This document shows positions 4,395 to 56,067 of a DNA stretch of 64,000 nt, one piece after another. Where the stretch lies: positions 186,001 to 250,000 of the forward strand of contig QPGO01000105.1 in assembly GCA_008632985.1 (NCBI GenBank). The letters run 5' to 3'. The translations under genes and the position numbers were made by a program. The notes under the pieces were generated by a model. That model made no database searches. It was not told where the DNA came from and saw nothing but the letters and a program-made list of their open reading frames with translations. The number at the start of each line of letters is the position of its first letter. Position 1 is the first letter of the stretch. This stretch comes from Psammoneis japonica (Eukaryota).

Positions 4395-4600
4395 CAAAAA
4401 TTTGGAACTCGGCCAGCCCAACAAATGAACAAGGAGCACTCAAGATCCTTTGGAACATGTCATTGTGTTTCACGTTGTTTGCCTGCCACTTTTTACATGT
4501 GTCATTCTGAAGGACTTCATCCATGCTGCAGTTGCAACAACAACAGAATGACATGTTGCAAACAAGTGCAACTGTGCAGTTGAGTCACCGGCGCATTGCG
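4395..4600 (+). repeat. Direct repeat copy B, matches 470-680
   Basis: Direct sequence match to 470-680. Confidence 0.9.
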
Positions 4601-7413: not shown

Positions 7414-7459
7414 CGTGGCACAGTCAGACTTATAACATGGTTACTACTCCAATCCTGGG

Positions 7460-12275: not shown

Positions 12276-13962
12276 TCAAACGTCTTCCTGACAAAGCACG
12301 TGTAACAACTGGCGACAATTCTTTTCCAAAGCTTCATGATACAGCCTTCCATAGTCACTGGCACGCCTGGCGGCAGTAATAGTGTTCCGCTTGGCATTTT
12401 TATTCAACACGTGAATTCCGAACGCCTTGCAAATCAGGGTCAAACACTTGGCACACAGGCATGCGTCGTGCGGCTTCTCTGTGGCCTTGCCAAGGTTCTC
12501 AATCAGGAGCAGTGCCCACGACAAATCAAACGCACAACTATCAAAACCGTTGGCCATGACGGCACAATCTGGCCGTTTGCCAAAGACAGGATTCATGGTG
12601 CCGTGGTGACGGGTGAAAAAAAAGACCTCCAGTGCGTTTGACAACGTTATCAAGGCCAAGCTAAAGAGATGGTCAGATGTCTTTTTCGACCCATCATCTT
12701 GGTCCTTGGCACCGCCATGTTCGTTTGGAGACTTTGCTTCTGTCTGAATCAAGCTCTTTTCCAGTGCGGACCGCCAGACACGGCGGATGTCCATAACTTT
12801 TGGCACGTCTTGTGCCGATGGAGCCTTTCCAAACAAAAGCGCTTGACTTAGCTTTGTTGCTGCGTCAATATCCGTCTTTTTTCCATCCGCAGACATGCGT
12901 AAAAGCTTCATGGCCGAGGTTAGCGACTCGATGCATTCAGAGTTCAAGCAATGGTGGATTGCACTTATCAAACTGCTCGCGCTTGAATCGCAATCTGAGC
13001 CATTTCGTTCCATTGGACTGTAAAGCGACTCTGTGAGAAAGCGCATGTTGGATGGACCATTCGAATCAGAAACTTCCAGGTGCGGGTATGAGTTCTTCTT
13101 TCCGAGCGCCGTATCGAGAATGCATTGGGCGTACAGCTGAAAGGTGATGGAGTCACCCCTGTGTCGTTCCACCTCGACGAGAATGTCTTTGCCATCGCGG
13201 CTGGACCAGAGTGCCATACGAATCTCAACATGCTCAAGATTTAGCAGATACATGAATGTCTGGAAAACGAATAGAACAGGAGAGCTTGTGAGCATAACGG
13301 GGTGTCTTAGTTCGTGCAAGTTGTTCTCCGTCCGAGATTCTCGACTCACCGTTTCATTGCGTTGCTGAACTTGAATGCTCAAACGACGAAACAAGGAAGC
13401 CATTCTTTCATTGAAGCACACCAAACAAAAGTCCGTGCGTCGAATGTATGCGGTTGTGGGGGCGGGAAGGTAGTAGAGTACAATCGGTTTGATTTGGTCC
13501 ATTGTGATGAGATTGTCGTGATGTGTGACGACTCTGTTGAACTCCATAACCAAGTCGTGCTCGTCATTCGGACATTCGCAAAGTGTCCCCACGTTAACGT
13601 TGAGACGTGTATTCCTTCCGACGGCAGCAGGCTCTTGATTGTCGGTCATTGCGACTTCCTCCCTGCAAATGCATTCGACGAACAACGAAAATGTTAGAGA
13701 TCGGCATTGGGATGTGCTGTTTCGTCCTCTCAAGGTTGTCGTACGGATGGAACAGGTTTCAACGAATCAATGTGCGTTTAAACCTCGTTGCCGAAGTTGG
13801 TGTACGCTTTCAGCACCAAATGACTTCACAGCTAACGAATGAATCGAGATGATCAACGTACCTGTGACTAGTCTTTTCATCTCGACTGTCAAGGATCCTC
13901 TTCATGGCAAGATTCGGTGTGCTTTTACCATTCGATGTTAAGTTGTTGTTGTTGTTCATCAT
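12276..13962 (-). CDS. Hypothetical protein, copy 2 (partly TpA-mutated, possibly decaying)
   Basis: 485-aa ORF paralogous to copy 1, with Y->H and Y->C changes (ERYRGD/ERHRGD, SDYDS/SDCDS). Confidence 0.55.
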
Positions 13963-15106
13963 TTTAATTTGTGAGAAGCTCAAGTTAGCTTTTTTTGTGA
14001 CTACGAATGGCATCCGCGATTAACGAATCCAATGTCCGAACTTTGTCTGACCCACCCATTGACTACTCCATGATTGCATTGTTTGATGTGTGCCCAGCGC
14101 ATGCGATCCGCGACTACCGAATCGTTGCATGTGACAGATGTTTGAACGTTGCCCTGACTCGGACGTTTGCGATCGGATCGACTGACTCAACATCCCATTC
14201 GTGCATTGACTCGTGGATCGTGGATTCGATTCGTGCATTGCGAAAACACACACACCTTTCTTTGGTTTGGACCAAAGAAAGAGAGGTGATTGCTTGTTGA
14301 CGGCACAATAAAGCCATTCGTGCTTTGAGTTGCTACGTCATGGGAGCTTTGTCAGGAAAGTCTTGCTCATTACCCAGAGACTGCGAGCACTTGTTTCAAA
14401 GCCCGGTGGATGCATCAATGCTCTTTCTCAAAAATTGGATCACCCCGTCTTTTTCGTTTCCCTCTTAATAATTTTCCATGGTCATGCGTTGGTCTAGTCT
14501 TAAACTCGTAACTTGAGAAACTCAAACAAAAAATGGTGCTTCTGCGACGTCTTGGAATTGCATTTTGAGCCGAGAAGTGACAGTCGTTGGACAGGTATTC
14601 ATTATGCAGTAAAATCCATCAAGGTCCAAAGAGGATTCATTGATCGTTTGAATGTGATAAGAGTTGCGTGACGCCCACTTTTACGTACTCCTTCTCCGTC
14701 GCTTTATCCGCCATGGCGTTTTTTTTTTAGTACGCCATGTTTGAAATGCGGCATGTTGCATGATGCAAGGGATTATACACATGATGTGTGGATTTTGGAT
14801 TGATGTCAACGACAGACGGACGGACATATTCAATCACGCATCTTTGACACGTCATCTGTAATTAACAAAATGTCAGATTTCCCGCCAATAGTTCTTTAAA
14901 GCACTGATACTGTAGATTGATGATTTCCATGTTGTGACAGCATGCGGCTTGAAGCTTGCATGTGCATGCTGGTCTTTGTGCAAGAGGCTTCGTTGCGTCC
15001 AAACGTTAGAAGCACGCACAGTGATTTAGTGATTGATTGATTCGCAAGGCACTGCATTTTTCTGGGACAAAGACCCAAGCCGATTTTACAAACTGAATAA
15101 AGAAAC

Positions 15107-21200: not shown

Positions 21201-21724
21201 CAACAGTTCAGGCCGAACATGATCCTGAGGGTAACGTGCACTACTTGTTTGGGGTGGTAGCAGGGGAAGGCCTCACTCTGCCAGTTGGCATCGAAACTGA
21301 ACTTTTTGTGAACTATGGCACCAAGCACGAGTCGGTGAGGGTTCGAAAAGGTTACTCGGAGCTCCCATTTGCAGAGAAGCAGCAAAAGCTGCAAGAGATG
21401 GAGAAGGACGACGAGGAATTTCTGGATGAAATCAGGAAATTCTCAGTGACAGATGTGGGTGAATGCGTCGATTTCTTTCATGGGATGTTTGCAGATGGCC
21501 AGAATCGTCTTCTGGCTGCTGGCAAGCTGGGAATAGATGCAGGGAAGCGGGCCCTTGTTGTTTCTAAGTTGCTTGAGGAGCGAGCAAGGAAGCTGAGAGA
21601 CTCCTCTGGCAAAGAAGTTTCCCTGTCATTGTTGGATTCCTCAGCGTCACTTGTCATGACTCTGGAGACACTTTTTGGGAAGCATCGCTTTCTTCGAAAT
21701 GAAATGATGATGAGCAATGTCTAA
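18243..21724 (+). CDS. Tudor-(zf-CXXC/MBD-like)x2-SET chromatin protein, paralog 1 (5 exons; introns ~18924-19001, 19416-19488, 20019-20094, 21023-21089)
   Basis: GTRVYARW..WYHG..VKFDDGD; RCGSCELC..CGVCSSC..CLRKMC; GFPAGW..GRNYRT; STIPGAGYGVF, YVNE, ELFVNYG; GT-AG introns. Confidence 0.8.
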
Positions 21725-22406
21725 ATGCAACACATTGAATTCAAGGGTGCAAGGGAAAAATTTGGATGTTTTGTGTCGTGACACAAGTTTTGGAAAAGTT
21801 TCTCGGCCCTGCCAGAGATTCCACATTGGAAAGTGAGCACAGCTTGTGTGGGCATTGGGTGCTGAGAAAGAGCACAAGTGCTTGTCAGATGCGTGCACAA
21901 TCCTTTGCCAAGCTGTGCACCCGGGTGTGCCCCATGAAGCCCAAGTCGGGGGGAGGGCTTTTGCCTCGAGATTGCAAAACGGAAGTCAATGCACTCTTGC
22001 TGGCGATCAGGAGATTGTGCTGTCCTTCTTTTGCAGCAACTGTTGAGTCAGAAGATTTCTGTAAAGCTTTGTCACCAGAGCACAAGTGTAGATGGTGTGC
22101 CCACACTGACAGCACACTGTACAGTGGAGGCGAGCAAAAACAAACACACGGCCAGACGCTGAAAAGCCGTTAAATGATTCCGTTGTGAATTAAAATCTTT
22201 TCATACGATGCTGAAGTAAACATTTCTTTTAATTAAATATAAACATTGCCACCAAAATATATATATAAAATATAAGATCCATTTCAGCGATTGCGTGATG
22301 ATCCGCGCGCGGGCCTCAAACACAGCTCAAATCTCAAATCTCAAAAAATAAAATAATCTCGGCATACAGGCAGCAAAGCTATTTTACAGCTAGTGCCGGT
22401 GATACC

Positions 22407-31719: not shown

Positions 31720-33310
31720 GATGTGAAATTTTGTGTGGGTGGCGGATCTTGTGGCGCGCGTGTGCACAGCAGCGTGCTGGCGTGCGTGGCTTCTTGCGCG
31801 ATGGAACGCGCAACGCCCTAAAATCGATCAATGAACTCCCCCTGGTAGAGACTGGCATCTGGGTGTGGTGTCTTGAATCTCGTTGGTGCCTAAACTCAAG
31901 CAAGATCTAGATCTTGAAAGTTGCCACTTGCACTGACAAATGGGGTAATCAACCAAGGGCAATTTTCTGATGTGTGGTTTGCATGTGTTGTCAGGCAGTT
32001 GTTTTGTGTTTTCTCCAATGTGGCATGAACAGATCCTCTCCGACACAGCAATGCAGCGCCTGTTTGCATCATCAAGGTGGAACAGCATCCCACTGTACTC
32101 ACCAATGCTGCTGTTTCCCACATGTTGCACTTGCTGATGCCGCTGTTTCTCACACCAGAATCATCACAGTGAGTCAAGTCAAGTGCACATCTGGCTCATC
32201 GCACAAAAAGATGTGCGCCAGCTGTCCCACCCTTGAAAGCCATGTTGTCTTCAAACTCACTTTCAACAATGACAAGCTTTGGCATTTGACCCATCAAAGT
32301 TGCAAGACAGCTGCCACCAAAGCTCACCTCATTGTCTCTGAAAGATGTCTTGTGCAAAGTGACAGTTTGCCCTGAAATTGTGGCTGAATGCTGCACAGCA
32401 GTCAGCAGCCCACCTCTGCCAGTGCCAACTGCTTCATTCCTGGTAAAAACACCATCTGTCACTGCCACCTGCAAAGCATCCTCAATGAACAGTCCACTGC
32501 CAGCATGCAACTTCTGTCCATTGAAAAAGATGGAGAGTTTTGGATGAGTGTGCTGTCTGCGGTTTGGATGAACAAGTTTCCACCTCCAAGGTCATGACGA
32601 CCTTCGTCGAATGAGCAGTCCAGCACCCTGTGATTGCCATTTGCAAGAACCTCTGCCACATCCTTCTTTGGTTTTCCCTCCTCTGAGACCAGCGCCAGCA
32701 AGGGAAAAATTGTTTCCAGACACGAGAAGATTTCTGTTGTCACCCGTGCTTGCCATCAAGCACATTTCTCAGATTCACAGCAAAGTGTCACACCTGACTG
32801 AGCAACGTTGATGGCAGATTGAAGATGGTGTTGCAGCTGTGTTTCCTCCACAGAAAGACACAACAGAGTCTTTTTTTGCATTGCCTGCTTTGGATTGAAG
32901 GTTGGAAAAGGTCGAGACACAAGAACCAGATGTCGGTGTGCGGCAGGATGGAGTTGGAGTCGGCTCTGGCAAAGGGGCACGTCGCTGAAAGAAGCAGTCC
33001 AAAGGGGTGACGCAGGATCCATCACAGACATGTCATCATCAAGGAACTTCTCCCAAAAGTTGTTGCTTTCAAAATGTGTTTCATTGGACATGCAGAGTTC
33101 TCCCTCTGCATCTTCTTCTGCTTGTGCTTTTCCTGCTGTTCTGCTGTTTTTGGATCACTCCGCTTGCACAGCATGAAGTTTGTCGCCTGCATTGCTTCAT
33201 TGTCAAACAGCACTGTGGCAGCCAACCAGCATGTCCTGTACATCCCATGATCATGCATCGTGATGGATTGACACTCATTTCTTTCATCGGTTTGTGAGGA
33301 GACTGGTTTT
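31720..33310 (-). pseudogene. TpA/CpG-depleted block with a degraded beta-helix (Pmp/pectin-lyase-like FxxN...GG repeat) gene
   Basis: FTRNEAVGTGRGG, FRDNEVSFGG and FEDNMAFKGG in ORF 32196-32510; fragmented frames; TA nearly absent. Confidence 0.55.
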
Positions 33311-40345: not shown

Positions 40346-40636
40346 TGCCAAGTGGCGCCAAGTAATGGTATAAAGTGGCGTTGTAAAGTTGACTGTTGCT
40401 AATGTTGTGAGAAGAAATGAAAGAGATTCGGCTGCTCCGAAATCTCGTAGAATTAATGCTAAGAAACCGCGTAGAAATATAAAGAAACAATCTTTCGAGA
40501 GGCATCGAGATGTATCGAGAAAGGAGAAGAGGTTTCTAGAAAGTGTCATCGTTGACATCCTTTTGACACTTTTGACACCAGGTTGACACCCACGAATGAA
40601 TATACGAATGAATATAGATGACCGTGATATTCGGCA
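40346..40636 (-). repeat. 3' LTR
   Basis: 280/291 identical to 44331-44621 by manual alignment. Confidence 0.97.
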
Positions 40637-40657
40637 CTCGCTTCCCCAATTGAGACG

Positions 40658-43600
40658 TTAGAAGACAGGGTGAAGACGGCGGATATTGATACGTTCAGTG
40701 ACGTGAGGCGAGCGCTGGATGGTAACGGTTCCATTGGTATGGACACGTACGATACGGAAAGGACCATCTTTGGTGTTGAGTTTGCGTTGGATGTCTTTGG
40801 TCATAACGAAGACTTGATCGCCGATGTTGTAGTCGTAAGTAAGACGTTTTGCGTTTTCGCGGAGATTATTGCGTAGGACATCGCGCTTGCGACGGGTATT
40901 AATCATTTTCCAGTTCGCAAGATAAGTAGCAGAAATGACCATGTCTCGACCGAAGACAATTTGTCCGGGAGACGACATAAGGGCAGTATGGTAGGTACTG
41001 CGCAAGGCCCATGCAACGGATTGCAAAATTCCATGAATTGTGTCTTCATCATGATCGCGAGAAGGGAGATCCATCGCACGGAGAGAATCGGCTATCACTT
41101 GATGAATACGTTCAACGAACGCGTTGGCTTGAGGATTCTTGATTGTTGTAGGTTTCGGTTTAACACCATAACTGTAGAGGAGATCTGTAAACTCGGAAGT
41201 GAATTCGGAACCGTTGTCATAAATGACAATTTCTGGTCGCGGATAGCGACAAAACCACTCGCGATCGACGATAAGTGAAATGTCTTCGGACGTTTTGAAC
41301 TTATAGTTCGCGAGTTCGACCCAACGGGTTGCGACATCAATAATTGAAACGGCTCTGATTTTGCGATCGACACCATTTTTGTCGGTATACGTCCAGGGAC
41401 CGAAAAGATCGACTTGAGTTGCCTGCCAAGGTTTATAAGTAGTATCTGGAAGAGGTAATTCACCATAGTTTGCCGTAGTGCGCTTGGATTTGGAACACGT
41501 GCGGCACTTACGGACAAAAGTACGGACTTTCATCTGCATGTCGCGAATGTAAAAATGTGAAGCCAAAGTTTGGCAGGTGCGATTAGCACCAGGATGGCAG
41601 AGAGTTTCATGGTGCCACCGTAGAACTGCAGGAAAAAGCGTTGGAGGGAGGACAATCTTGTTCTTGTAAAGGATGATCTGTTTTCCGTTGAATGGTTCGG
41701 CTGAGTGGGATTCGGACTTGTCGAGTCGTTGCTGAAGAGCAGAATCTTTTTTCTGATGGTCGGCGATAATGTCGAAAGTAACGGGGAATATTGAAGGATC
41801 GATTTCCAACGAAGTCATTTCCTCGCAATCGCTTTGATCGACTTGGACAATGGGACAGCGACTCAAAAAATCAGCCACGACATTCTTGTGGCCTGGTGGG
41901 TGCTCGAAAGAGCAATCGCATTCCTCGAGAAGCAAACGCCAGCGTTTGACGCGTTCTGACTTGAATTTGTCAAATGTGAGATTTTTGTGATCGGCAAACA
42001 GGTAGCATCGATGACCAAAAAGGATGCTTTTGAAATTTTCGGTCGTTTCCACGAGCGACAGTGGCTCTTTTTCCATTGTCGTGTAGTTTCGTTGCGCTTG
42101 AGATAATTTTCGGCTGTAGAATGCAATTGGCCATTCGTCATCGTCAAAATCTTGAGTAATTGCTGCACCAAGTTGACAATCACTCGCATCCGGATAGATG
42201 TTGAAAGGTTGAGAGAAGTCGGGGAATCGGAGGAGGATTTCGCGCGCCGTGATTTTTTTCATCGGATGCCGTTCGAGACACTCGTTGAGTTTCCGTAAAT
42301 CGGATGAGAAACGGATGCCACCGCTTTTCTTCGATCGGAAAAGACAGGGTGCGCCCCAAGGAGAGTGAAGTTTGCGCGCAACAACATCGATTTTTTCCAA
42401 TTCATCCACTTCTTTGCGAGCCATGGGATGTGACGCTTGCGGAACAGTGTGAGCTTTCGCACAGTGTGGACGCGATCCTGGTTTCAGGGTCAAATGGACG
42501 GGTTTACCGGGTGCAGCTCCAAGTGTACCATCGAATAATTGCGGGTATCGTCCGAAGAGTTCGATGAGTTGGTGCTGTTGATCGTTGTCAAGGTGTTTGC
42601 AGCGTAGAACCATGTCGCGACAATTGTGCTTGTCGTACGCATTGCTCGTCATACCTCGAACCTGACGGTTGACGGCATTCTGGAAGAACTTGGGTAATTC
42701 AGCATCGCCGGGATGAATTGCATTAACTTCGACTTGGTCGAAAGAGCCCTTGGATCGCATGGATAGGGTAACATCGCCCCACGTGATTGTTTGATGTCGA
42801 AAATCAAAAACGAGTCCCATTTCTGTGGCGGTTTTTCTTCCGATGATAATGTCGTGTTTTCCTACGGCTTTGTCTTCCACACAAGCATCGACGGAAACCT
42901 TCTTGGACGATGCGAAGTCTGGGAACTTCAATGTCAGCGTCGCAATCTCGTGTAGATTAACGGCACTGTAACGGCCTTTAACGGGAACGTTACATTTACG
43001 GATTTTGTGAGGAATCCCGCGAAGGGCTGAGCGCTTCACAAAATTGCGATTTGCGCCGGTATCGAGCAGAGCAACACGGAACTTGTGCATTCCAGAATGA
43101 GTGTCAATCATCTGGACACGCGCTTCCGTGGTAAGATTGTCTTCTACTTCGGATTCGATGGAATCGTCTAGAAGAGACGTGACGTCTTCAAAAATGTCGT
43201 TGACATCGTCTGACGCGACGCTGTCGACATCGTTAGAAGCGGAGCGACTGGCTTTGGAGTCCACATTATTGTTTTCGACGTTCCGTGTGCGGCTCCGTGT
43301 AGGATAGCGGTGTGTCGGCTCGTTTCGAGAGTTATTTTGTTGATTCGGCGCATTCCGATTTGCGCGGTTCCGCTCATAATTTTCACGTTCACGACGGATG
43401 ATGTTGCACTCTTGACCGTTCGGATGTACAACGCCATGGATTGGACATGTTTGTTCACGATTGTTTTGATTCCTGTTCCTGGCATCGCGATTTTGGTCGT
43501 TATTCTGGCCGTGACGCGTGTGTCGACCGTTGTTGCGTTGATTCCTATTGTCATTGCGTCTGTTGTTGTCGGTAGACCCTTTGTCACCACGTCGTTCCAT

Positions 43601-44257
43601 ACGTCGGAGAGTCTCGTAGTGTTGAGCTTGGTCGTTCAAGTTTAAGTTGCGAAGACGGGCTTTAGTCTGAGTTTCGGCCCATGATCTTGGTCCACATTTT
43701 CGAAGGATTACGGATAATTCCGCTTCCGTGAATGACGGAACTCTTTCGGCGTCATCTTCGGTTGGCGTAGGCATGATATTAATCAACTTATTAAAGCGAC
43801 GGATGTCATTAACAAATGACTTGACAGTTTGGTTCCTGGGTTTCTTAAGGCTTTGAAGCCATTCCTTAGTATCAAGGGCAATTTCTCTATCCATGTATTG
43901 GAGTAGAAATTCTTCACGACAAGTATCGAATGTAACTTGGTCGCGGTTTTCGTAATCGTCTACGACGATTTCCCAGTCGTCTTTTGGTGTTCCGGTCATA
44001 AGTCTGGTCACGAGCCGGAAACGTGGCTGTCCTTCAGCCGTACCGAGATCGTTGATAAGTTCATCGAAGTTTGACCAGAAGGTAAGAACATCTTCCGGTT
44101 CAGTTGAAGCTAACTTACGTACCTCGATCGTAGTTTTAAGCCCATCTGGATCGTCAGGATCAATGGGGCTTTCAAAAGACACGAATTGGTCTTTGCGCCG
44201 CTCTTCCTCAGAGCGGTCAGGACGCTTAAGTTCGAATGGGCAGTTTTCTGCTGACAT
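40658..44257 (-). CDS. Gag-Pol polyprotein (protease, truncated RT, RNase H, integrase)
   Basis: LLDTGA; SPWGAP..DLRKLN; DAS..LGA, DHKNL, NVVADFLSR; zinc-finger HHCC, VDLFGP, YDNGSEF, NPQANAFVER; GPF. Confidence 0.93.
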   Translation of the reverse strand: MSAENCPFELKRPDRSEEERRKDQFVSFESPIDPDDPDGLKTTIEVRKLASTEPEDVLTFWSNFDELINDLGTAEGQPRFRLVTRLMTGTPKDDWEIVVDDYENRDQVTFDTCREEFLLQYMDREIALDTKEWLQSLKKPRNQTVKSFVNDIRRFNKLINIMPTPTEDDAERVPSFTEAELSVILRKCGPRSWAETQTKARLRNLNLNDQAQHYETLRRMERRGDKGSTDNNRRNDNRNQRNNGRHTRHGQNNDQNRDARNRNQNNREQTCPIHGVVHPNGQECNIIRRERENYERNRANRNAPNQQNNSRNEPTHRYPTRSRTRNVENNNVDSKASRSASNDVDSVASDDVNDIFEDVTSLLDDSIESEVEDNLTTEARVQMIDTHSGMHKFRVALLDTGANRNFVKRSALRGIPHKIRKCNVPVKGRYSAVNLHEIATLTLKFPDFASSKKVSVDACVEDKAVGKHDIIIGRKTATEMGLVFDFRHQTITWGDVTLSMRSKGSFDQVEVNAIHPGDAELPKFFQNAVNRQVRGMTSNAYDKHNCRDMVLRCKHLDNDQQHQLIELFGRYPQLFDGTLGAAPGKPVHLTLKPGSRPHCAKAHTVPQASHPMARKEVDELEKIDVVARKLHSPWGAPCLFRSKKSGGIRFSSDLRKLNECLERHPMKKITAREILLRFPDFSQPFNIYPDASDCQLGAAITQDFDDDEWPIAFYSRKLSQAQRNYTTMEKEPLSLVETTENFKSILFGHRCYLFADHKNLTFDKFKSERVKRWRLLLEECDCSFEHPPGHKNVVADFLSRCPIVQVDQSDCEEMTSLEIDPSIFPVTFDIIADHQKKDSALQQRLDKSESHSAEPFNGKQIILYKNKIVLPPTLFPAVLRWHHETLCHPGANRTCQTLASHFYIRDMQMKVRTFVRKCRTCSKSKRTTANYGELPLPDTTYKPWQATQVDLFGPWTYTDKNGVDRKIRAVSIIDVATRWVELANYKFKTSEDISLIVDREWFCRYPRPEIVIYDNGSEFTSEFTDLLYSYGVKPKPTTIKNPQANAFVERIHQVIADSLRAMDLPSRDHDEDTIHGILQSVAWALRSTYHTALMSSPGQIVFGRDMVISATYLANWKMINTRRKRDVLRNNLRENAKRLTYDYNIGDQVFVMTKDIQRKLNTKDGPFRIVRVHTNGTVTIQRSPHVTERINIRRLHPVF

Positions 44258-44330
44258 GTCTGGTCAGGACAATATGATCGGTAGACATATCTCAAGAGAG
44301 ATGAATAAGTGTTTGGGAGTAAATTTACTA

Positions 44331-44621
44331 TGCCAAGTGGCGCCAAGTAATAGCATAAAGTAGCGTTGTAAAGTTGACTGTTGCCAATGTTGTGAGAAGA
44401 AATGAAAGAGATTCGGCTGCTCCGAAATCTCGTAGAATTAACACTGAGAAACCGCGTAGAAATATAAAGAAACAATCTTTCGAGAGGCATCGAGATGTAT
44501 CGAGAAAGGAGAAGAGGTTTCTAGAAAGTGTCATCGTTGACATCCTTTTGACACTTTTGACACCAGGTTGACACCCACGAATGAACACACGAATGAATGT
44601 AGATGACCGTGATGTTCGGCA
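44331..44621 (-). repeat. 5' LTR
   Basis: Matches 40346-40636; followed on the + strand by TSD GATTC. Confidence 0.97.
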
Positions 44622-48052: not shown

Positions 48053-48468
48053 CGTGTTGGTAGCTAGAAGTACTAGTGAAATCGACGAGAGCGAATGATA
48101 TGGGCAGCGTGTCTCGTGCTATCGCTTTAGGAGATGTCTCTCTGCTATCGTATTCCATCATGATTCTTACATGGAAGTTATGTTAGTTTGTACATGGTGT
48201 GATTAGAGTTGACCGCCCTGGTGAAGAACCTCACATCGTGCGTTGTGCATCGTGCTGCGGCGTTTTCGGCTATTTTTTTCGATTTTTCATTGTTTATATA
48301 CATTATTAAATAGAAATAATTATAATTATACTTTACAATTAACGAAGGACAAGCATCACACCGATCCAGCGATTGAACTGAAGATCCTTTTACTGTATGG
48401 CAAATTCTCACATTTTCACCGGAAGTTGAAGGGTGGATCAGCAAGAACTTCAGGTTGAAAGGGAGACA

Positions 48469-49230
48469 ATGAAGATTGCTAATCTTTTTCCGATTCTTGT
48501 CGCCGCTGTCATCCCGTCGGCCGTTGTTGCGGTCGAGCCGACAAGTTCAAGCAGTGGGGTTCAAGTTTATGAGAACTTCTTCTCAAACGATGACATTGAG
48601 ACGATTTACAAGAATCAGAAATCGTCCTCGAAGACTGCGTCTTGGGAGATGCAGTACCGATCGTCTCATTGTGGTGCTACTTTCCTATCAAAGGAGCACA
48701 TCAAGAATCTGAATCAAGTTGTCAATGGTGCTACCACCAAGAACGAAGACCACGACGCGCAGTACGTCATTATGAAAACCATGACCGAGACAACCCCGGC
48801 GCATGTCGACGGTGCCATGAAGGCGGATGGCTCATGTGGGCCCAGTAACGACGACGTTGCCTTTATCTTCTTGAATACCAACCCTGACGCAAATTTTGTT
48901 ATTGAAGGAATGGAAGAACCCATCCCTGTCAAGGAGGGCAGTCTTGTTACGTTTCCTGGCACCAAGTTCCGTCATAACATGGTTGTGAAGAGCGGCTCGG
49001 TGAAGATCGCTGGTCCGTTTACGAAAGCATATCCTCATCGTCTGGCTGGAATGCAACAAACAGGCGGTAATATTATCCGGTGGTTCATTTCGACGCTCAA
49101 GCAATGCTTCGGTAAGGGGAAGGACCCCTTGAGAAACCGCCAGTTGCTGGCTGAGCATTGGCTCCGCGGTGGACTAAACGAAAAAGTCGACGTTACCGAG
49201 AAGGACAATAGCGTCGCCTTGGAAGAATGA
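48469..49230 (+). CDS. Secreted protein, possible 2OG-Fe(II)/cupin-fold oxygenase
   Basis: Signal peptide; HVD...FIFLN...PVKEGSLVTFPG..RH spacing. Confidence 0.55.
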   Translation: MKIANLFPILVAAVIPSAVVAVEPTSSSSGVQVYENFFSNDDIETIYKNQKSSSKTASWEMQYRSSHCGATFLSKEHIKNLNQVVNGATTKNEDHDAQYVIMKTMTETTPAHVDGAMKADGSCGPSNDDVAFIFLNTNPDANFVIEGMEEPIPVKEGSLVTFPGTKFRHNMVVKSGSVKIAGPFTKAYPHRLAGMQQTGGNIIRWFISTLKQCFGKGKDPLRNRQLLAEHWLRGGLNEKVDVTEKDNSVALEE

Positions 49231-51544
49231 ACATAGCTCAGAGTTTCTTTTGAGCTTGAAGATGGAGTTAACACCCTTTTTGTGTAGCTCTCTAGACTTT
49301 AGTAGGAAAATGATTGTACGTATTGCAATGCATGCAGCGCTCTGATTTACATTTTTGCAATGTGCTTTGGGCGCGTTAAGTCTCAGTAAGCTGCCTGACG
49401 TCGCCGATGCTTGCCGGTTACAAAAAGCTCAGAAAATGCAGAGCTGGGAGTGTGTCACTCTGACCCTTCTGTCATGATGCCATTTCTCTCCTTGCCAATG
49501 ACAAAACCAAGCGACACTTTTAGACCCTGTTGTTCCCTTTGAGAAGAAATGCAGCAGGAGCATTCTGAGTGCTTGCTTGACTTTTGTGTGTGTGTGCTGA
49601 AGATGTGATGATGCCTCTCTTGATTTTTTGGAATGAAATTGTCAACTCCTTTTGTGTGCACTGTACTTGGCTTCATCCATCATTGCAGATGATGTCAAAT
49701 GTCAATTGGAGCACTCTGGAGTTGAGATCTCATTCAAGGATTTGTGCTCTTCCATGATTCTGGCAAAGCCACCAAGCCCCTTCTTGTCTCATCAGAAAAT
49801 GCAGTGTGTTGTCAGCTGCTGCAGAGAGTGCAACAATTGCAGCAGGATCCAAGTTCCTTCCTGGCAGAAATCCTTTTGATGGCAGAAGTGCATTTTGCCT
49901 CAAAAGTTGGCCCAGTTGGAGCAGCTCTCTTTGGTTTTTTGTTCAAACAGTCTGCTTGCACCTGTGTTTGATGCACATCATTTTTCATCCAAGCTTTCTT
50001 CCCAAGTCAATTGCCATTTCCAGCAGTGGAGTCATTGCAGCTGAGTTTGCCAAGATCTTTCAAAATTTGGGCACAAAATGGCAAATCTCCACAAAGAGCT
50101 CTGTGACTTGGCTCCACAAAGTGCAGCTGATGAGAAGATCTTCTTGACGGGAGCACACAATGCCAATGTTGCACTTTTGTTTTCAATGAATTGCTTTTGC
50201 AAGCTTGTGAAGTTGAGTTGCTCAAACCTTTGCTCTGTTGAAGTGTGGCCTCATGTCAAACAAAAAAAGGTGATTGTTTGCCCTCACAGTTGTTTGTCCT
50301 TGAGAAATTGGCAGCGGTCAGGTGTGCCAGGCACTCACACATTTGCAGGGGTGGCACATGTGAGCCAATTTGTTTGGCATGGAGCTTGTTTTTGAGCATT
50401 GTCTCAGCAGCAACTTGTCATGAAATGCACACCAAGTGGCTGTCATTGGCGGTGCCAGACCAGGCAGATGTGCCAAGAGAGCAGCAAACAGCTGCCAGAA
50501 AAGCTGCCACAGCCAGGAAGCAGGCATCTTGAGCAAAGTTGTTTCCTTGCTTGCAGTGTCTGAAAATGAATTGTGAGCTGTGAGTGATCTCTGTGAGCAG
50601 AAAACCAGATTTCATCACATTCATGCCAAAGCACAGTGCCATGAGACCACAGACCAGCTTGGGCCAGGCTGAGTTTGAAAACTGAGAAGCTCAGGATGTG
50701 CTTGCATTGAGAAGCTCAAGTGCAACCTTCAAAGGTGAGGTGATGTTGAGAGCAGTTGTCATGAAGAAAAAGTGGCTGGTTTTTGTGTTTTGGGGGGCAT
50801 GGGCAGACTTGGTTGCTTTGCAAACAAGGCCTCATTCAGCACCTTCCCCCTGCTCTCTGCCCCAATGACAACAAGTGACCACAAAATGCTCTGCTGACAA
50901 ATGAAATGTGCCACTCCCAGAAACAAATCACACCATTGACCCTGCAAAGCTGAGAACCACCATGACTCCGGACAAGGGTTTGCAAGTGCCACAAATGAGC
51001 AGAAGGTCTCTTGGAAGGAGCAAACGTCATCTTCTTCTTTGTGAGCATGAGTGTCTTTGAGTGAGATGACTTTGGCAAAAGCACAATTTTTTCCATGAAT
51101 TTTTTAGGTCATGAGTGAGTTGTGGTTTGAGCTGGCATCTTAGAAGTGCTTTCAATGGGACAACAACCAAAGCACCAGCAATGACAGCACAGATGAGATT
51201 CATTTTCTGTTGCCTGGCACAAGAAACTTGGACTCCTGTCCCAGCACAAAGACTCAGCATTGTTTCTGTGCACACAACTTCCTTGATGATCTGTCCCATT
51301 GCAACACCTGGGACAAAAGTGACAGGAGGGCAGAACCATCTGGGCAAAGATTCAGTTCTGCAGAAGTTTGTGCCAGCTTTTTGTGCAAGGCAAATGCACA
51401 TTGTGGAGAGTTGGAAATCTGACAGACAACAATGACAACATCAGAGCAACACATGTGCATGCATGCCACGTGCCAATCCAGTCATTGAAAACTCCAAAAC
51501 AAAAGATCTTTCTTGCAGTTCTCATGATTTCTCCACGAGAAGCA

Positions 51545-52320
51545 CAGTTGAAAAAAGACAATGAAGATTGCCAATCTTGTTCTCATTCTTGTCACCACTG
51601 GACCTTCTCAAACAATGAGAAAACATTGTGGTGCTGTTCTCCTGTCAAAAGAGCAGCACATTGAGAACCTGAATCATGTTGCCAATGGCGCTGCCACCAG
51701 CCAAGGACTGTGATGACCACAATGCACTGCGCATCATTGTGAGGACCATGACCAAGATGACCCTGGCACATGTTGATGGTGCCATGAAGGCAGACAACTC
51801 ATGTGGGCCTGGCAATGACAATGTTGCCTTTGACTCCTTGAGTGCTGGTGACCCTGATGGCGTGCAAATTGTGTTGTTGAAAAGGAGTGGAAGAACCAAT
51901 CCCTGTCAAGAAGGGCAGTCTTGTTGCACTTCCTGGCACCAAGTTCCACCATCACATGGTTGTGAACAGTGGCTCAGTGAAGATCACTGGCCCCTTGGTT
52001 TGCAAAAGCATGTGCTCATCATCTGGCTAAAACCACTGACACAGGAGGTGGCAATTTTTTTGTTGGCTTGTTTTCAACATCAGAAAGTGCCAGCTGCTGC
52101 TGGCATGGCTTTGGCTCTGCAGCAGACTGAGCAAAAAGGTCAATGTTGCCAAGAAGGACAATGCCATCACCTTGGAAGAGTGAGTGCAGCTCAGAGCATC
52201 CATTGCAAACAGCCTGAAGATGGAGGCAACATTTTTGTTGAGTGGCTCCTGCAAACATTGGCAGGAAACTGATTGCAAGGTGTGTTGCAAAGCAGCAATC
52301 TGATTTGCACTGCAATGTTT
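51545..52320 (+). pseudogene. Hypermutated duplicate of the 48469-49230 gene
   Basis: gacaatgaagattgccaatctt, catgttgatggtgccatgaaggc and ccctgtcaagaagggcagtcttgtt are collinear with the intact gene. Confidence 0.92.
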
Positions 52321-55300
52321 TTTGCTCACGCCAAGTTGCAGCAAATTGTGCAACACAGCTGGTGGTTGCTGGTTGCATGAAAAAGCTGAGAATTGTGCAC
52401 TGTTGGGGCAAACCCTGCACCAGGATCATCGCAAACAGCTGCAGCATGACCACACAAACCTTGTTTCCCACTCATGTCCAGGCATCTTTCTTTCATCTGT
52501 TTCCATTCCAACATGAAAACCAATGAGAGACATTGTTTGGTTTTGCCATTGATGGAAAGGAGAAAAGTCAAATGGCATTGAACAGGCTTCCACATGTGTT
52601 TCATGACAGAATGACTGGGGTCACAGATCTCCCAGCTGCACTTCATGGTGTCAAAAAAACATGACAGCAGTTGCCAAACTCACAGGAACACATTCATTCA
52701 TCTGGCAGAAAGTTGACAAATGTTGACGAACAGCAACAAATCCTCCAACTCATTTTGGCCTGAGAACAAGATCAACAGATGGAGAAAAAGCACAGTGCTT
52801 GTGTGGCCAATGGCAAACCAGCAACAACAAGTGCCATGAAAGAACTGCAACAAGAGTTGATGGCCCAGCACCCTGACAATCAGATGCCACAATGCAGAGG
52901 GACAGCACGTGTGCATGCAACTGTGGCTCATTAATTTTTTGACACTTCAACCCCCTCTCATTCAAAATGGGAGGGTTGTTGGTGCTCAATCAACATGCTG
53001 CCATTGCAGCCCCATTTTTGTTTTGCTGTTGAGCACTGCAGGGCTGTGCAAACCTCTTGACACCCATTCTCTGCACCTTTGTGCTTGCTGTGCTTTTTGT
53101 GTGTGTTTGATGTGGCACTCCTTAACTCCAACATGTTCTGGATGATGTTGCACACTTGACAAACAACACAAGGTGTGCTGCTGCAAAATGATTGTGGCAT
53201 GCACACATCAAACTTGAAAAAGCCCTTTTCACATGTGACAGATGTGCTCTTGTTTGGCAAAACTGGCAATGAGCATGAGAAGCTCTCTGATGACAGGTCA
53301 CACAAAATCATGCCATGTGTGCTTTGGTCAAATGTGCTCCAAATCATGTGATGAGGTTCGTGGCTGCTGATGGCCAGGTGTCATGTGGGTTGTTTTTGCA
53401 AAAGCTTGACAGACACCCAGCTCTTGCCAACTTCTCATTTGATCAAGAACAAGCAAACACTTTGACCATTGCTTTGTGTTTGTGCATGTCACACATGTTG
53501 TGGTCACAGCATGAGGGCACACAGTTAGTTGTGTTGAAGAGAGTGCTTTTTCGTCTCCACCTTCTCTCCCCAAAAACACTCTTTTGGGCCACATCAAAGC
53601 TTCAGATGTGAAATGTGTGCCACTGATGTCTCCAACACCTGTTTCAGCAATGTGCTGGTTGCAAAAATCTCACTCACAAAATGCTTGACACAAAGCTTAC
53701 AATGCACTGGTGCTTGACATGCAAAGAATGCAAGCCCATGACATGTTTTAGAAAACATGATGAGCTGCACTAGATGCACGCATTTGACCTTGGTCCAGCA
53801 CTCACAAGACATCACAGAGTGCACTGACATTGGTTGCAGCCATCACAGTGCATGGTGCTCAGCTCTGTCATTGTAAGACACATCATGCAAACAGCCAGTC
53901 AAATGCCACCTGCATGATGTTCTTGTGGAAAAAGTCACAGCTTGTCCCCCCCCCCCCCACACACACAAAAAGCTCAACTTTTGTGAAAATCAACAGTGTT
54001 GTCAACCTTGCAACAGGGCACAGCTGACAAGCAGTGGCATTTGAAGCTCCAAATGTGCAGCTTCTCTTGTGCCAGCACAAAGTGGCCCTGACAAGGGCTT
54101 GACAAATGCACAAGAGTTTGGGGGTGCTTTTTGAGGCAGATCAAAATGACGCAACATGCTGGAAATGCAAACAACTGGCTCAGCTTTGACTGCAGCATGC
54201 AGATTCATCCTCAAAGGCCATCACAATTTGACTGCTGGGGCCTTCATGATGGAAGTGGTGGGCAACCAGATGATGACCACCATTGTCTGCTTCAATGTCA
54301 CACACAAGCAGAACAGCACAAAGATGAGCATCTGTGATGGAAAGCTTGCATGTCTGGCAAGTGCTCCACATGCTCATTTTGTGAGGGAGAAATGTCCATG
54401 AGAGATTTTGCTGCAAAAAAGGACACAATCATTGCCCCAACATTGCGGCAGAGATGGGTGTTGTGACCAACTGGCATCATCTCCAATTGTGCCATCAGGG
54501 AGAAATGCAAACAAGAAACTTCAGCTGCCCTGCAGAAAAGAAGAAGCACACACAACCAAGAAATGTAATCTCAGGGGGCAAACTTTGCACTTGCTTTGCA
54601 GCAGAGTGCTGCACGCACCAAACAATTTCATTTGCAGTGCAGGATGTGTAGAGCAGGGTGAACATGACCCAAAGAGTGGCACACTGTCAGTGGTCTCATT
54701 TGCCAAGCTGCAGTGCTCACTGCCACACAAGCAAGTCCAAAGCAACTGGCATTGTTTGGCGCAGAAATGCCATGCTGTTGAATGTTGCTCATCAAGCTGA
54801 GGGTGAAAGCATGTCACATGCATGACAGAAAGCACAGAATCTCCTCCCCTCGTCCAAGTGAACAGCAGCCAAGCAAGAAAACAGCAGGCACAAGGAGCAC
54901 AAAATGCTCCATGAGACAAGTGACCCTCATCAAACAAGAGCAAAAATTGAAGTGCAGGGCTGATGTGACAGCTGTGGTGTGCAATCTGCGGCACCAGGTT
55001 GTGCTCTCCTGTCATCAGAGCAAGACATCTGGTGCTCTGCAGCCCTTTTCATGGGGGGATTGTGTGCAGCGTGCACTGCACTGGCAACTGCTGGCAGATG
55101 CTGGCAATGTTGAGGGGCTCCTCTGCCAATGTGCAACAACACAAGTGCCACTCATGATCTGCAGAAGATGTGCACAAGCTCAGACTCATTCTGCTGTGCA
55201 GGCACATCACAGCACAATTGCTTGCCAGCCACAAGTGAGCTGAGTCACAAGGATTGTGCACAGCCAGCTGCCCCCCACCACAGCCACACCTTTTCTGGCA

Positions 55301-55469
55301 AGCAAAGCCCCCACGCACATGATGCAACCTGTTTTGCAGGAGCAAGGGTTTGCTGAGAACCACAAGAGATGAGCTTCTGGGGCAAAAACCTTCATTTGCA
55401 GATGAAAACACTCACACATGTGTGCACTGTGTGAGTGCACACTGCCTCATGCTGCAGCTGATAAGTTCT

Positions 55470-55470
55470 C

Positions 55471-55503
<33 letters not shown>
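55470..55503 (+). repeat. (CAG)n microsatellite
   Basis: Direct reading. Confidence 0.9.
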
Positions 55504-56033
55504 CGAGCTGACTCGGGGACAGTGCTCTTGCAGTTGTTGGCAACAACAACAAACTTTTTGTTGCACCCCTGCTCAACGTGCCAGTCTCTCCCAATGTTGA
55601 GCATGCCAAAACTGGCAAGAAGCCTTGGAAACTCCCCAAGATCTTTTTTGAAAACTGTGTTTTGAGACAAACCACGATGACAAGAGAGAATGGAGAGCTG
55701 CACAGCAGTGACGAGCCCAGTGCTGGGGGCACACTGGGGTGTTTGCAACACAACACATCACTCAGTTTGCTGTCTTCTCATTTGATCAACAAGCAAATGC
55801 TTCAATCAGCACAGGATGAGAGAGCATTGCGGTCTGCTTGCCTCCCCTCCCCCAAAAACTCATGCCGAGACGAACGTTCGAGACATTTCAAAAATGACTT
55901 ATTGTTACAAAATGAACAATGTTCATCTTTGAACATAATCATTTGATTATGATGTCCCTAACGCCTATTTTGGCGATACGGCCCCCGCCCGGCCTTCCCT
56001 TGTTGAGACAAATCGGGTCAATTCAAAGACCAC

Positions 56034-56035
56034 CA

Positions 56036-56067
<32 letters not shown>
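56034..56067 (+). repeat. (GCAC)n microsatellite upstream of the giant gene
   Basis: Direct reading. Confidence 0.9.

Follow-up and report, generated by a model that had tools for sequence, protein, structure and literature searches.

Introduction

The RIP of fungi, which depends on RID or DIM-2, changes C:G to T:A only, in Neurospora mainly at CpA, and in this way it creates TpA, lowers the GC content and introduces stop codons. It mutates both copies of a duplication and, to our knowledge, is restricted to fungi. Another route to the loss of a dinucleotide is the decay of CpG when the 5-methylcytosine of methylated repeats is deaminated, known in vertebrates and plants, of which the TCG hypermutation of some basidiomycetes is a case. 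Among the adenine deaminases, the natural substrate of TadA/ADAT is A34, placed after the invariant U33 (UACG in tRNA-Arg for bacterial TadA), and a trypanosome ADAT2/3 also deaminates C in DNA; we know of no natural enzyme that hypermutates chromosomal DNA at adenine. As for thymine, base J in the telomere repeats of kinetoplastids and 5hmU in dinoflagellates are found largely at TpA and such marks are restricted to domains, and 5-formyluracil, an oxidised thymine, pairs wrongly with G and leads to T>C. We know of no JBP/TET mark that erases its own target sequence.

CpG methylation of diatom transposons is described in passages of two reports (PMC9998398; PMC2806351), and deaminases particular to stramenopiles, with SAM and Tudor domains as fusion partners, have been predicted (in a section of PMC3239186). 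Full-text searches outside subscription papers gave no description of a collapse of TA, or of TA and CG together, for diatoms or other stramenopiles, and the portions of PMC9998398, PMC3239186, PMC2806351 and 10.1101/2025.10.24.684338 reached by term look-ups do not describe it either. Here we report such a collapse in Psammoneis japonica, with evidence drawn from one window, by which we mean the whole 64-kb stretch of DNA that was analysed (Table 1).

Table 1. Location and main properties of the features of the window.
Feature	Position	Strand	Properties
Block A	570..6065		TA-free, CG half depleted; TA 12 vs 213 expected, CG 167 vs 322 expected
dupA, second copy	12271..14909		Partial, one-sided TA loss; first copy at 7455-10046
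Block B	21353..22062		TA-poor; overlaps paralog 1 (one of a family of three) at the 3' end of the latter; TA 3 vs 28 expected, CG 19 vs 41 expected
Block C	31946..33239		TA-free, CG partly depleted; TA 2 vs 50 expected, CG 22 vs 76 expected
Ty3/gypsy-type LTR retrotransposon	40346..44621	-	LTRs at 40346-40636 and 44331-44621; ends TG..CA; GATTC on both sides
Duplicated unit, unmutated member	48440..49434	+	Coding sequence with ~15-30 bp upstream and ~200 bp downstream; TA and CG content normal
Intact gene	48469..49230	+	ORF of a 253-aa protein; N-terminus signal-peptide-like; predicted 2OG-Fe(II) oxygenase (prolyl-4-hydroxylase-like) fold
Block D	49420..55900		TA- and CG-free domain of 6.4 kb holding the copy; both borders sharp
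Duplicated unit, degenerate copy	51547..52392	+	Collapsed at 30/30 aligned TA and 42/43 aligned CG

The Intact Gene and Its Degenerate Copy

The protein encoded by the intact gene is matched by no curated family model of Pfam at E<=0.01, and a word-index protein search with it returned no match, whereas an exhaustive search of representative proteins gave 171 sequences at E<=1e-3. Across 41 aligned members of the family, among which Pfam finds only single weak matches to Cupin_2 and PhyH, the residues H112, D114 and H169 of the HxD...H iron-binding triad are invariant. The AF2 model of the protein (pLDDT 73, pTM 0.68) has prolyl hydroxylases and other 2OG oxygenases as its top Foldseek matches in the PDB (5c5t, 2jij, 3gze and PHD2; probability 1.00, E ~1e-5, TM 0.4-0.54), and a double-stranded beta-helix fold of the 2OG-Fe(II) oxygenase / prolyl 4-hydroxylase-like type is predicted on this basis. 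In the 22 kb around family homologs on five metagenome contigs there is no TA-free stretch of at least 250 bp, a sample too small to show absence elsewhere.

By BLASTN the copy matches the intact unit in two segments (48454-48508 with 51547-51600, and 48667-49434 with 51624-52392). Their alignment reveals a deletion of ~158 bp near the 5' end of the copy, together with several other indels and frameshifts, and the residues F134, N136, N138, F143 and F162, invariant in the family, are lost. Dinucleotides were counted on the pairwise alignment of 48440-49445 with 51533-52400. Not one of the 30 aligned TA of the intact unit is kept in the copy, where 18 have become TG, 9 CA and one each CG, TC and TT, so that 27/30 ended on TG or CA; a single CG out of 43 is kept, the others being now CA (24), TG (15), AG (2) and TC (1), that is 39/43 on TG or CA. 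Over the whole unit, 1 TA and 5 CG are left in the 868 nt of the copy vs 36 TA and 61 CG in the 1006 nt of the intact unit. Per site, the change affects 31/60 positions at TA and 41/86 at CG vs 102/638 at the remaining sites (Fisher P=2e-9 for TA and 3e-10 for CG against the others), and 29 of the 31 changes at TA sites are A>G or T>C. Double changes are rare (TA>CG 1/30, CG>TA 0/43). The identity of the two sequences is 92% in a purine/pyrimidine alphabet vs 69% in real letters, and their divergence therefore consists mostly of transitions; 16% of the sites other than TA and CG have changed, the mark of an old copy.

These counts bear out an earlier note on this DNA, which had held that TA and CG both collapse onto TG/CA and that only one of the two copies was mutated: the intact unit is unmutated and the copy saturated, and the four pairs of strings that the note had quoted are all present in the alignment. 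The count of substitutions by dinucleotide, which it had proposed as a check, gave frequencies per site that are far from equal. The outgroup comparison that it had also proposed was made at the level of the protein family, not of DNA, and its result is divided. Over 52 changed codons the intact residue is favoured at 31 and that of the copy at 14, but the polarity is weak when the comparison is restricted to codons with collapse-type substitutions only (intact 9, copy 6, tie 3). One claim, that an expressed copy is protected or preserved by selection, is not borne out in that form: selection on an expressed gene alone does not account for the protection, because ~190 bp of non-coding DNA 3' of the stop codon of the intact gene keep their TA and CG up to the border near 49420, and other paralog pairs are untouched.

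TA-Free Blocks in the Window

The copy is only a part of block D, in which 15 TA and 35 CG are found vs 248 and 374 expected (CG o/e 0.03-0.14) and TG and CA together number 1537 vs 940 expected, in balance between the strands (751 TG vs 786 CA) and at a GC content of 0.47. TA and CG are missing to the same degree from the 2.1 kb that separate the two units and from the 3.5 kb that follow the copy. In the four blocks of the window TA stands at 4-11% of expectation with the GC content unchanged, and at three of the four right-hand borders TA passes from 0 to 3-12 per 100 bp. Given the TA density outside these blocks (38.9 per kb), the probability that at least 900 bp lack TA by chance is ~7e-16; nine TA-free gaps are observed, the shortest of 543 bp and the longest of 1441 bp, and chance is excluded as their origin.

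What could be identified in the blocks is a broken gene copy, gene fragments and unrecognisable sequence. When 198 ORFs lying outside the blocks were searched by tblastn against block DNA, three matches emerged, namely the gene copy, the end of the paralog (block B) and a 5' fragment of a sulfotransferase (block A); no relic of a gypsy pol was among them. The fragment in block A (4697-4757) is inverted and matches the 5' end of the neighbouring sulfotransferase (6253-6313); the same block has a direct repeat (516-700 and 4440-4630). The polarity of block B is weak and the sites are too few, the six TA common to both outgroup paralogs being TA (2), TG (1), TT (2) and AA (1) in copy 1. Pfam returned nothing above noise on 126 stop-to-stop ORFs of at least 70 aa from the four blocks, Rfam had 0 matches on the 64-kb window, and when the window was compared with itself by BLAST in the purine/pyrimidine alphabet the remainder of block D had no partner there (the control with reversed sequence scored 99.6 at most). 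No transposon protein is recognisable in the blocks, so that their being silenced repeats is an inference.

Sequence Context of the Changes

In the gene/copy pair A>G reaches 48% per A at TpA vs 8-11% at ApA, CpA and GpA, and C>T reaches 44% at CpG vs 15% at TpC, 16% at CpC and 18% at ApC. The conversion of TA prefers 5'-TAY-3' (equivalently, 5'-RTA-3' for T): the rate of A>G by 3' base is 11/13 for TAC, 7/12 for TAT, 5/12 for TAG and 3/18 for TAA, and the outcome follows the flanking bases, with YTAY giving TG by 15:2 and RTAR giving CA by 11:5 (P=0.001). In the blocks, 18 of the 32 residual TA are in the form YTAR vs 14% outside (P=3e-8), and trinucleotides are depleted to 0.01 (ATA/TAT), 0.04 (GTA/TAC), 0.10 (CTA/TAG) and 0.12 (TAA/TTA). 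No effect of the flanking bases on the outcomes at CG is evident, and TG and CA outcomes are not clustered by strand (38 runs vs 34 expected).

An LTR Retrotransposon at an Early Stage

The gag-pol frame of the LTR element encodes 1199 aa, in which Pfam recognises RNase H and integrase, and it is without the RT core; since its relatives, of ~1420 aa, carry PF00078, the element is probably a defective member of Ty3/gypsy. A metagenome scan with its pol gave 19 pattern matches, with no relative among them. The GATTC target duplication implies that the two LTRs were identical at insertion, hence the differences between them arose after integration and the action was on integrated DNA. All 11 differences are transitions, nine of them exchanges between TA and TG/CA, the rest being one TG<->CA pair. 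There are 0 differences at the 15 CG shared by the LTRs (P=1e-6), and ~250 other positions per LTR are unchanged. The element shows an early stage of TA collapse, in which TA is affected before CG.

The direction of the changes can be read from Tyr, considered at the 23 columns where this residue is found in 80% or more of 12 relatives. The element has Y at 15 of them, H at 4, C at 3 and F at 1, the replacing His and Cys being encoded by CAC or TGY; its conserved Cys are kept in 6/6 cases and its conserved His in 12/15, none having become Tyr. The retention of Tyr (15/23) vs that of other conserved residues (389/479) is not significantly different (P=0.10), so that the argument on direction derived from the element rests on the kind of replacement.

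Regional Limits and Polymorphism

In dupA, TA in the first copy faces TG/CA in the second at 30 sites and the reverse occurs at 8 (P=5e-4), the corresponding CG counts being 24 vs 13. In the pair dupB (10.6% diverged) and in tandem repeats (7.3% diverged) the conserved fraction of TA, 0.78 and 0.86, respectively, is like that of other dinucleotides and the exchange is symmetric (5:4 and 7:5); tandem repeats at 81% identity are untouched. The absence of a TA excess in dupB and in the tandem repeats indicates a process of regional, not genome-wide, extent. TA is under-represented throughout the window (o/e ~0.5-0.6), and intergenic stretches rich in TA at 11501 and 34501 keep 38-40 TA per 500 bp. 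It is chromosomal domains, not copies, that are targeted.

Contigs built from k-mers of a public sequencing run (X1), which is possibly from the sample behind the assembly of the window and thus not fully independent, cover the whole of block D as single-copy DNA, at a depth of 44-110 (~55) vs 54 in the flanks. The window and this run show TG-vs-CA double differences at 50254/5 and 51464/5, and in the run TA>CA changes reach further left (49285, 49303, 49317 and 49321). The collapse sites are polymorphic between haplotypes. As a separate observation, another run (X2) covers the intact gene deeply but the flanks and block D hardly at all, and it contains a paralog-like contig; this pattern is not taken as evidence of expression.

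Taken with these data, the earlier note is supported in its claim that the changes run away from TA and CG, as seen in the passage of conserved Tyr to His/Cys in the LTR element and in the TG-vs-CA double differences between LTRs and between haplotypes. The two processes that it had supposed to converge on one TG/CA sink can be told apart in blocks A-C and in the LTR element, which have lost TA and kept much or all of their CG. The contrast it had drawn with fungal RIP is also valid, and the phenomenon far exceeds one gene pair.

Proposed Mechanism and Alternative Explanations

The gene pair is probably one instance of a region-restricted and context-specific hypermutation of nuclear DNA, due to a mutator that targets TpA within domains and to a slower decay of CpG on silenced DNA. 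Within discrete domains that end sharply, over 100 bp or less, TpA is turned into TpG or CpA (A:T>G:C, on either strand) until TA is nearly extinct. The change of CpG to TpG/CpA comes later, being slower or separately controlled, and most simply it would be the deamination of methylated CpG. The domains may correspond to silenced chromatin. What they hold is dead DNA: the broken gene copy, the gene fragments, sequence that is unrecognisable and, as an early stage, the defective LTR retrotransposon; neighbouring genes escape along with short non-coding flanks. The favoured candidate for the enzyme behind the TA hits is a TadA/ADAT-like adenine deaminase working on DNA, and the oxidation of thymine to 5hmU/5fU, mispairing with G, could be an alternative. 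The change of TA to TG/CA can only remove and never create TAA or TAG, with the consequence that stop codons, Tyr codons, TATA-like and AT-rich signals are erased and long spurious frames are left.

It is possible, though we hold it only tentatively, that an active DNA mutator targeted to chromatin domains exists in diatoms, or in this lineage, with A:T>G:C at 5'-TAY-3' as the primary change, which together with CpG deamination would act as a genome defence spreading from silenced DNA; that it would be still active is suggested by the collapse sites that differ between haplotypes. With the same reserve, such a mutator might be the first natural hypermutation on adenine/thymine of chromosomal DNA, irreversibly scrubbing the promoters, Tyr and stop codons of dead genes and transposons.

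A genome-wide hypermutability of TA and CG combined with purifying selection would make the blocks old unconstrained DNA at mutational equilibrium, in keeping with their intergenic position, with the pseudogene and gene fragments that they contain, with the low TA o/e found everywhere and with the age of the copy. This is unlikely, as dupB and the tandem repeats exchange symmetrically and without TA excess, TA is kept both in the non-coding DNA beside the intact gene and in the TA-rich intergenic stretches, the borders are step-like, and the LTRs changed at TA only while ~250 other positions of each stayed constant. A premeiotic mutator of the RIP type, triggered by duplication, dependent on RID/DNMT4 and recognising repeats with an altered specificity, would be in keeping with the duplicated material of the blocks (the gene copy, the sulfotransferase fragment, the direct repeat, the paralog end) and with the attack on a retrotransposon; diatoms have DNMT4 enzymes related to fungal RID (as stated in part of PMC9998398). 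A single member of each pair is mutated, however, while dupB and the tandem repeats at 81% identity are not, and most of block D is without a partner in the window, even in the purine/pyrimidine alphabet, and single-copy by depth. Furthermore, the main change, A:T>G:C at TpA, is impossible for a cytosine methyltransferase-like enzyme, and RIP creates the TpA that is here destroyed, which makes this mutator very unlikely.

We consider it highly improbable that RNA underwent A-to-I (and C-to-U) hyperediting and that the edited copies were then reverse transcribed and inserted, despite the A>G changes, which are the signature of inosine, and the nearly mRNA-sized duplicated unit, which extends from ~15-30 bp before the ATG to ~200 bp after the stop. 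The LTR-LTR differences postdate integration and collapse sites vary in situ between the haplotypes; the collapse is contiguous over 6.4 kb, including sequence unrelated to the gene, and equal on both strands; and A>G at ApA, CpA and GpA is not raised, unlike what the neighbour preferences of ADAR would give. TA and CG are both palindromic dinucleotides, of the kind that bears symmetric modifications, and modified bases in heterochromatin (5mC at CG, modified T/A at TA) could be miscalled during sequencing or assembly. Such an artefact is scarcely credible, given that the k-mer contigs of run X1 show block D at the depth of its flanks, that strand-wise miscalls, once merged, should often be double where one change per dinucleotide is the rule, that the copy also has indels and changes at other sites, and that Tyr>His/Cys occurs within an otherwise open frame of 1199 codons.

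Known processes in their standard form were rejected as well. For AID/APOBEC cytosine deamination this was done on the C>T rates at TpC, CpC and ApC vs CpG and on the lack of strand runs, and for ADAR-type hyperediting fixed by retrocopying on the LTR pair, which diverged after integration at TA only, and on the A>G rates at non-TpA vs TpA. Fungal RIP that makes only C:G>T:A and raises TpA is contradicted by the depletion of TpA in the blocks and by the 29/31 TA-site changes that are A>G or T>C, and fungal RIP that mutates both duplicates by the clean intact unit beside a saturated copy and by the unaffected dupB and 81%-identical tandem repeats.

Significance

An enzyme-driven and domain-limited TpA>TpG/CpA mutator would, if real, represent a genome defence of a new class, outside fungi, and could supply a natural editing of DNA directed to adenine or thymine with a defined TAY context; it would then suggest a role to be sought in DNMT4 enzymes and in stramenopile-specific deaminases. 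The series from the LTR element through blocks A-C to block D might serve as a silencing clock or staging series. The annotation of diatom genomes would also be affected, as decayed transposons in TA-free blocks would escape homology searches. Such blocks, being without TAA and TAG, give rise to spurious ORFs of great length, in which Tyr is absent and Cys, His, Gln and Trp abound.

Comparison with Known Systems

As in fungal RIP, context-specific transitions saturate silent or duplicated DNA in situ and the aberrant blocks adjoin normal genes; leakage past the edge of the target also has its counterpart here, in the border placed further left in the other haplotype. Unlike in RIP, the changes are mainly A:T>G:C at TpA, so that TpA is destroyed, the GC content is unchanged and TAA and TAG are erased; moreover, one of the two copies escapes and several duplications show no hit. 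The decay of CpG through 5-methylcytosine may correspond to the CG>TG/CA half of the process, which is limited to silent DNA and slower than that at TA. It differs in depth, the CG o/e of block D being lower than the ~0.2 of vertebrate genomes, and it leaves the loss of TA unexplained.

From the enzymatic side, A>G is the expected result of adenine deamination by TadA/ADAT2 or ADAR, and the natural substrate of TadA/ADAT fits the observed order TAC > TAT > TAG > TAA. These enzymes, however, act on RNA, and ADAR does so on dsRNA with looser neighbour rules. The stramenopile deaminases with SAM and Tudor fusions (predicted in a section of PMC3239186) are candidate enzymes as a lead only. The hydroxylation of thymine by JBP/TET is alike in its location at TpA, in the T>C outcome and in the restriction to domains, with no report of base J or 5hmU marks in diatoms found in the literature searched. 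The signature observed here fits a hit on T or a hit on A equally well.

Regional collapse of TA and CG

In the window, TA dinucleotides have been lost in situ, directionally, in a specific sequence context and within limited domains, and the loss of CG is a separate process. Four TA-poor blocks, A to D, were found by a 500-bp scan, with limits set from the lists of TA and CG gaps. In block D the products of this collapse, TG and CA, together number 1537 against 940 expected, and the GC content of the blocks is unaltered (0.47-0.51). Outside the blocks TA occurs 38.9 times per kb, and chance is excluded as the origin of the gaps that lack TA over 900 to 1441 bp (P < 1e-15).

Coordinates of the features, with dinucleotide counts of the TA-poor blocks
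Feature	Position	Strand	TA observed/expected	CG observed/expected
Block A	570-6065		12/213	167/322
Open frame of 502 codons	2549-4054
dupA, first / second copy	7455-10046 / 12271-14909
dupB (kinase-bearing, adjoining dupA), first / second copy	10234-11489 / 15035-16288
Tandem duplication comprising dupA and dupB	7455-11489 / 12271-16288
Three-member paralog family	19849-21703, 24785-26624, 28554-30430
Block B	21353-22062		3/28	19/41
Block C	31946-33239		2/50	22/76
Acetyl-CoA-synthetase-like gene (ORFs 38010-39224 and 36927-37976)	36927-39224	-
LTR element (Ty3/gypsy-type, defective)	40346-44621	-
Its two LTRs	40346-40636, 44331-44621
Intact unit	48440-49434	+
Intact gene	48469-49230	+
Block D	about 49420-55900		15/248	35/374
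Degenerate copy	51547-52392	+
Microsatellite (CAG)x10.7	55472-55503
Microsatellite (CACG)x8.5	56034-56067
1360-aa ORF of tandem units (with 59113-63765)	57769-61851

The borders are abrupt: on leaving block A or block D on the right, 600 bp with 0 TA per 100 bp give way to 12 and 7 TA per 100 bp, respectively. The left border of block D lies about 190 bp 3' of the stop codon of the intact gene, in the final bases of the duplicated unit; the non-coding 3' flank of the intact unit retains TA and CG, and TA-rich intergenic DNA is retained elsewhere in the window. The degenerate copy represents just 0.85 kb of block D, and the collapse is equal in the 2.1 kb separating the two units and in the 3.5 kb past the copy; it belongs to a chromosomal domain rather than to the copy. 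The earlier note had claimed that only one copy was hit, which holds in that the intact unit is spared, but the collapse reaches far past the copy and is found in four blocks.

No recognisable content was found in the blocks beyond the gene copy, the end of a paralog and a sulfotransferase fragment. Long spurious ORFs are abundant in blocks A, C and D because TA loss takes out TAA and TAG; besides the frame of 502 codons, both strands carry several frames of 100-200 aa. The translations are devoid of Tyr and abundant in Cys, His, Gln and Trp, and gene finders will probably make false protein calls there. Two perfect microsatellites lie at and just past the right border of block D, and the contigs of X1, a public sequencing run, appear broken at both. 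In metagenomes, no such blocks were seen in 22 kb of five contigs around homologs of the intact-gene family.

The intact gene and its degenerate copy

When 48440-49445 and 51533-52400 were aligned globally, 4/4 of the intact/copy string pairs quoted in the earlier note were present. None of the 30 aligned TA of the intact unit is kept in the copy, where they read TG (18), CA (9), CG (1), TC (1) and TT (1), and a single one of the 43 aligned CG is kept, the remainder having become CA (24), TG (15), AG (2) and TC (1). Per site, 31/60 TA and 41/86 CG positions differ, against 102/638 at other sites (Fisher P = 2e-9 and 3e-10, respectively), which bears out the proposed collapse of both dinucleotides onto TG/CA. 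Identity of the pair rises from 69% in real letters to 92% in a purine/pyrimidine alphabet; about 158 bp are absent near the 5' end of the copy, and its frame is shifted by several indels. Double changes are rare (TA to CG 1/30, CG to TA 0/43). A mutational sink predicts just such single changes per dinucleotide; miscalling of modified bases strand by strand would not produce this pattern.

With the protein family as outgroup for 52 changed codons, family members more often have the intact residue at 31 and the copy residue at 14, and the near-invariant F134, N136, N138, F143 and F162 are retained by the intact gene only. Codons with collapse-type substitutions only show a weak split (intact 9, copy 6, ties 3).

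The product of the intact gene has 253 aa, a signal-peptide-like start and no match in Pfam; its family comprises 171 representatives. The protein has an invariant HxD...H triad, and its modelled structure is similar to those of 2OG-Fe(II) oxygenases, prolyl 4-hydroxylases among them. In X1 and in a second run, X2, the gene (48336-49337) shows 2-3 times the depth of its flanks, and a variant contig over 48400-48698 carries 11 substitutions and an 8-base gap relative to the window, which suggests that at least one additional close paralog, or else a divergent allele, lies at another place in the genome. X2 is deep over the intact gene and scarcely covers the flanks or block D.

Other genes of the window

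An acetyl-CoA-synthetase-like ORF has its best named match in Fragilaria crotonensis (49% identity); the gene consists of two adjoining ORFs, a split that an intron or a frameshift could explain. Further content includes sulfotransferases, a kinase and the gypsy-type element. The window is eukaryotic DNA, and its source is read as a diatom or something closely related. The 1360-aa ORF is built of about 1-kb tandem units in at least 4 copies, 68-81% identical and free of TA collapse, with weak Pfam matches to Effector-associated domain 1 and a RelB-like model, neither with a significant stretch. The members of the three-member paralog family, spaced roughly 4-5 kb apart, have no Pfam match, and the first member alone enters a TA-poor block, with its 3' end.

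Two processes and their direction

The LTR element has lost TA and not CG (CG observed/expected 1.2-1.65), blocks A-C lack 89-96% of the expected TA versus 48-71% of the expected CG, and block D has lost both, with CG returning about 400 bp before TA at its right edge. The two processes postulated in the earlier note are accordingly separable, TA being lost first. In dupA, TA in the first copy faces TG/CA in the second at 30 sites and the reverse holds at 8 (P = 5e-4), the corresponding CG counts being 24 versus 13 (P = 0.10). The exchange is symmetric in dupB (5:4) and likewise in tandem repeats at 60142-63221 (7:5), where the conserved fraction of TA, 0.78 and 0.86, is no lower than that of other dinucleotides. 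TA loss thus varies by region: it does not act genome-wide, and duplicates are not hit symmetrically. The tandem duplication of about 4.8 kb contains one gene of unknown kind and a protein kinase gene, and one-sided TA loss in its second copy is confined to the former, whose ORF has 457 aa there versus 314 aa in the first copy, as the erasure of stop codons would predict.

The TG..CA ends of the LTR element and the GATTC on each side imply that its two LTRs were identical at insertion. They differ by 11/11 transitions, of which 9 are TA versus TG/CA and 2 form one TG-versus-CA pair; the 15 shared CG, like all remaining positions, show no difference (P = 1e-6). The 1199-aa frame of the element was also aligned with 12 relatives (43-55% identity): at the 23 columns with Tyr in at least 80% of relatives it has Y at 15, H at 4, C at 3 and F at 1, and each of these seven His/Cys is encoded by CAC or TGY. 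In the reverse direction, conserved Cys is kept in 6/6 cases and conserved His in 12/15, with 0 changes to Tyr; moreover, three conserved Ile positions are now ATG. It is the kind of replacement that carries the direction argument; the rate of Tyr retention is not significantly low (15/23 versus 389/479 for other residues, P = 0.10). Collapse seems to begin locally inside the element: its middle (41600-42500) has 2-6 TA per 300 bp versus 9-18 elsewhere, and 5/7 of the Tyr to His/Cys changes fall within 41612-42622, a wider stretch taking in this dip.

Support in reads and haplotype differences

X1, possibly the source sample of the window, contains 77% of sampled 31-mers of 48400-52400. Its k-mer contigs span 47000-57000 with a depth of 44-110 in block D versus 54 in the flanks, so the block is single-copy and present in raw reads. 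Comparison with the window listed 26 single-letter differences at 49285-53200, a further 52 falling outside this list. Among the 26, six abolish a TA of the window (49285, 49303, 49317, 49321 and 51105 to CA; 49664 to GA), two abolish a CG (51470, 51862), four letters make up two TG-versus-CA doubles (50254/5, 51464/5), three oppose TG of the window to CG in X1 (51562, 51863, 53200) and 11 are of other kinds. Each double requires that a TA or CG of the ancestor was resolved separately in the two lineages, and hence a process active after the haplotypes split. The collapsed zone in X1 extends about 130 bp nearer to the intact gene.

Sequence context

In the gene pair, the A to G rate on a given strand is 11/13 at TAC, 7/12 at TAT, 5/12 at TAG and 3/18 at TAA. 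Pooled from the gene pair, dupA and the LTRs, YTAY gives TG 15 and CA 2, RTAY TG 16 and CA 7, and RTAR TG 5 and CA 11 (P = 0.001 versus YTAY). These counts point to a target 5'-TAY-3' for a hit on adenine, or 5'-RTA-3' for one on thymine. YTAR makes up 18/32 of the residual TA in blocks versus 276/1947 outside (P = 3e-8), which fits its lack of the target context on either strand. Relative to outside, trinucleotides are reduced in blocks to 0.01 (ATA/TAT), 0.04 (GTA/TAC), 0.10 (CTA/TAG) and 0.12 (TAA/TTA), with a twofold gain of GCA/TGC. The strands of block D are about equally hit (TG 751, CA 786), and no strand clustering of hits was found.

Possible mechanisms and comparison with known systems

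A genome-wide bias combined with selection, judged within one 64-kb window, is improbable, being contradicted by the unaffected paralog pairs, the kept non-coding flank and the step-like borders. RIP proper fails because its chemistry differs and because one copy is spared here, and RNA editing followed by retrocopying fails against the LTR argument and the polymorphism in situ. A sequencing or assembly artefact fails as well, given the support in reads and the one-hit rule.

TA would be lost by enzymatic adenine deamination, the route we favour; the domains may be silenced chromatin, and the loss of CG would reflect deamination of methylated CpG. Diatom transposons are described as CpG-methylated in two papers (PMC9998398, PMC2806351). 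Alternatively, T at TpA could be oxidized by a JBP/TET-type enzyme. In other protists 5hmU and base J are located at TpA, and 5-formyluracil pairs wrongly with G. PMC3239186 predicts deaminases that are specific to stramenopiles and carry SAM and Tudor domains, and PMC9998398 describes the RID-related DNMT4 of diatoms as having an unknown function; both serve as leads only.

No published description of such a TA/CG signature was found in the available part of the full-text literature, in which few subscription journals are covered; with this caveat, and from one 64-kb window, the signature is rated as falling outside the known kinds of hypermutation. As regards the favoured adenine deamination, trypanosome ADAT2/3 is also able to deaminate C in DNA. 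The adenine deaminated by TadA/ADAT enzymes, A34, is preceded by an invariant U33, and the UACG substrate of bacterial TadA parallels the TAC preference observed here.
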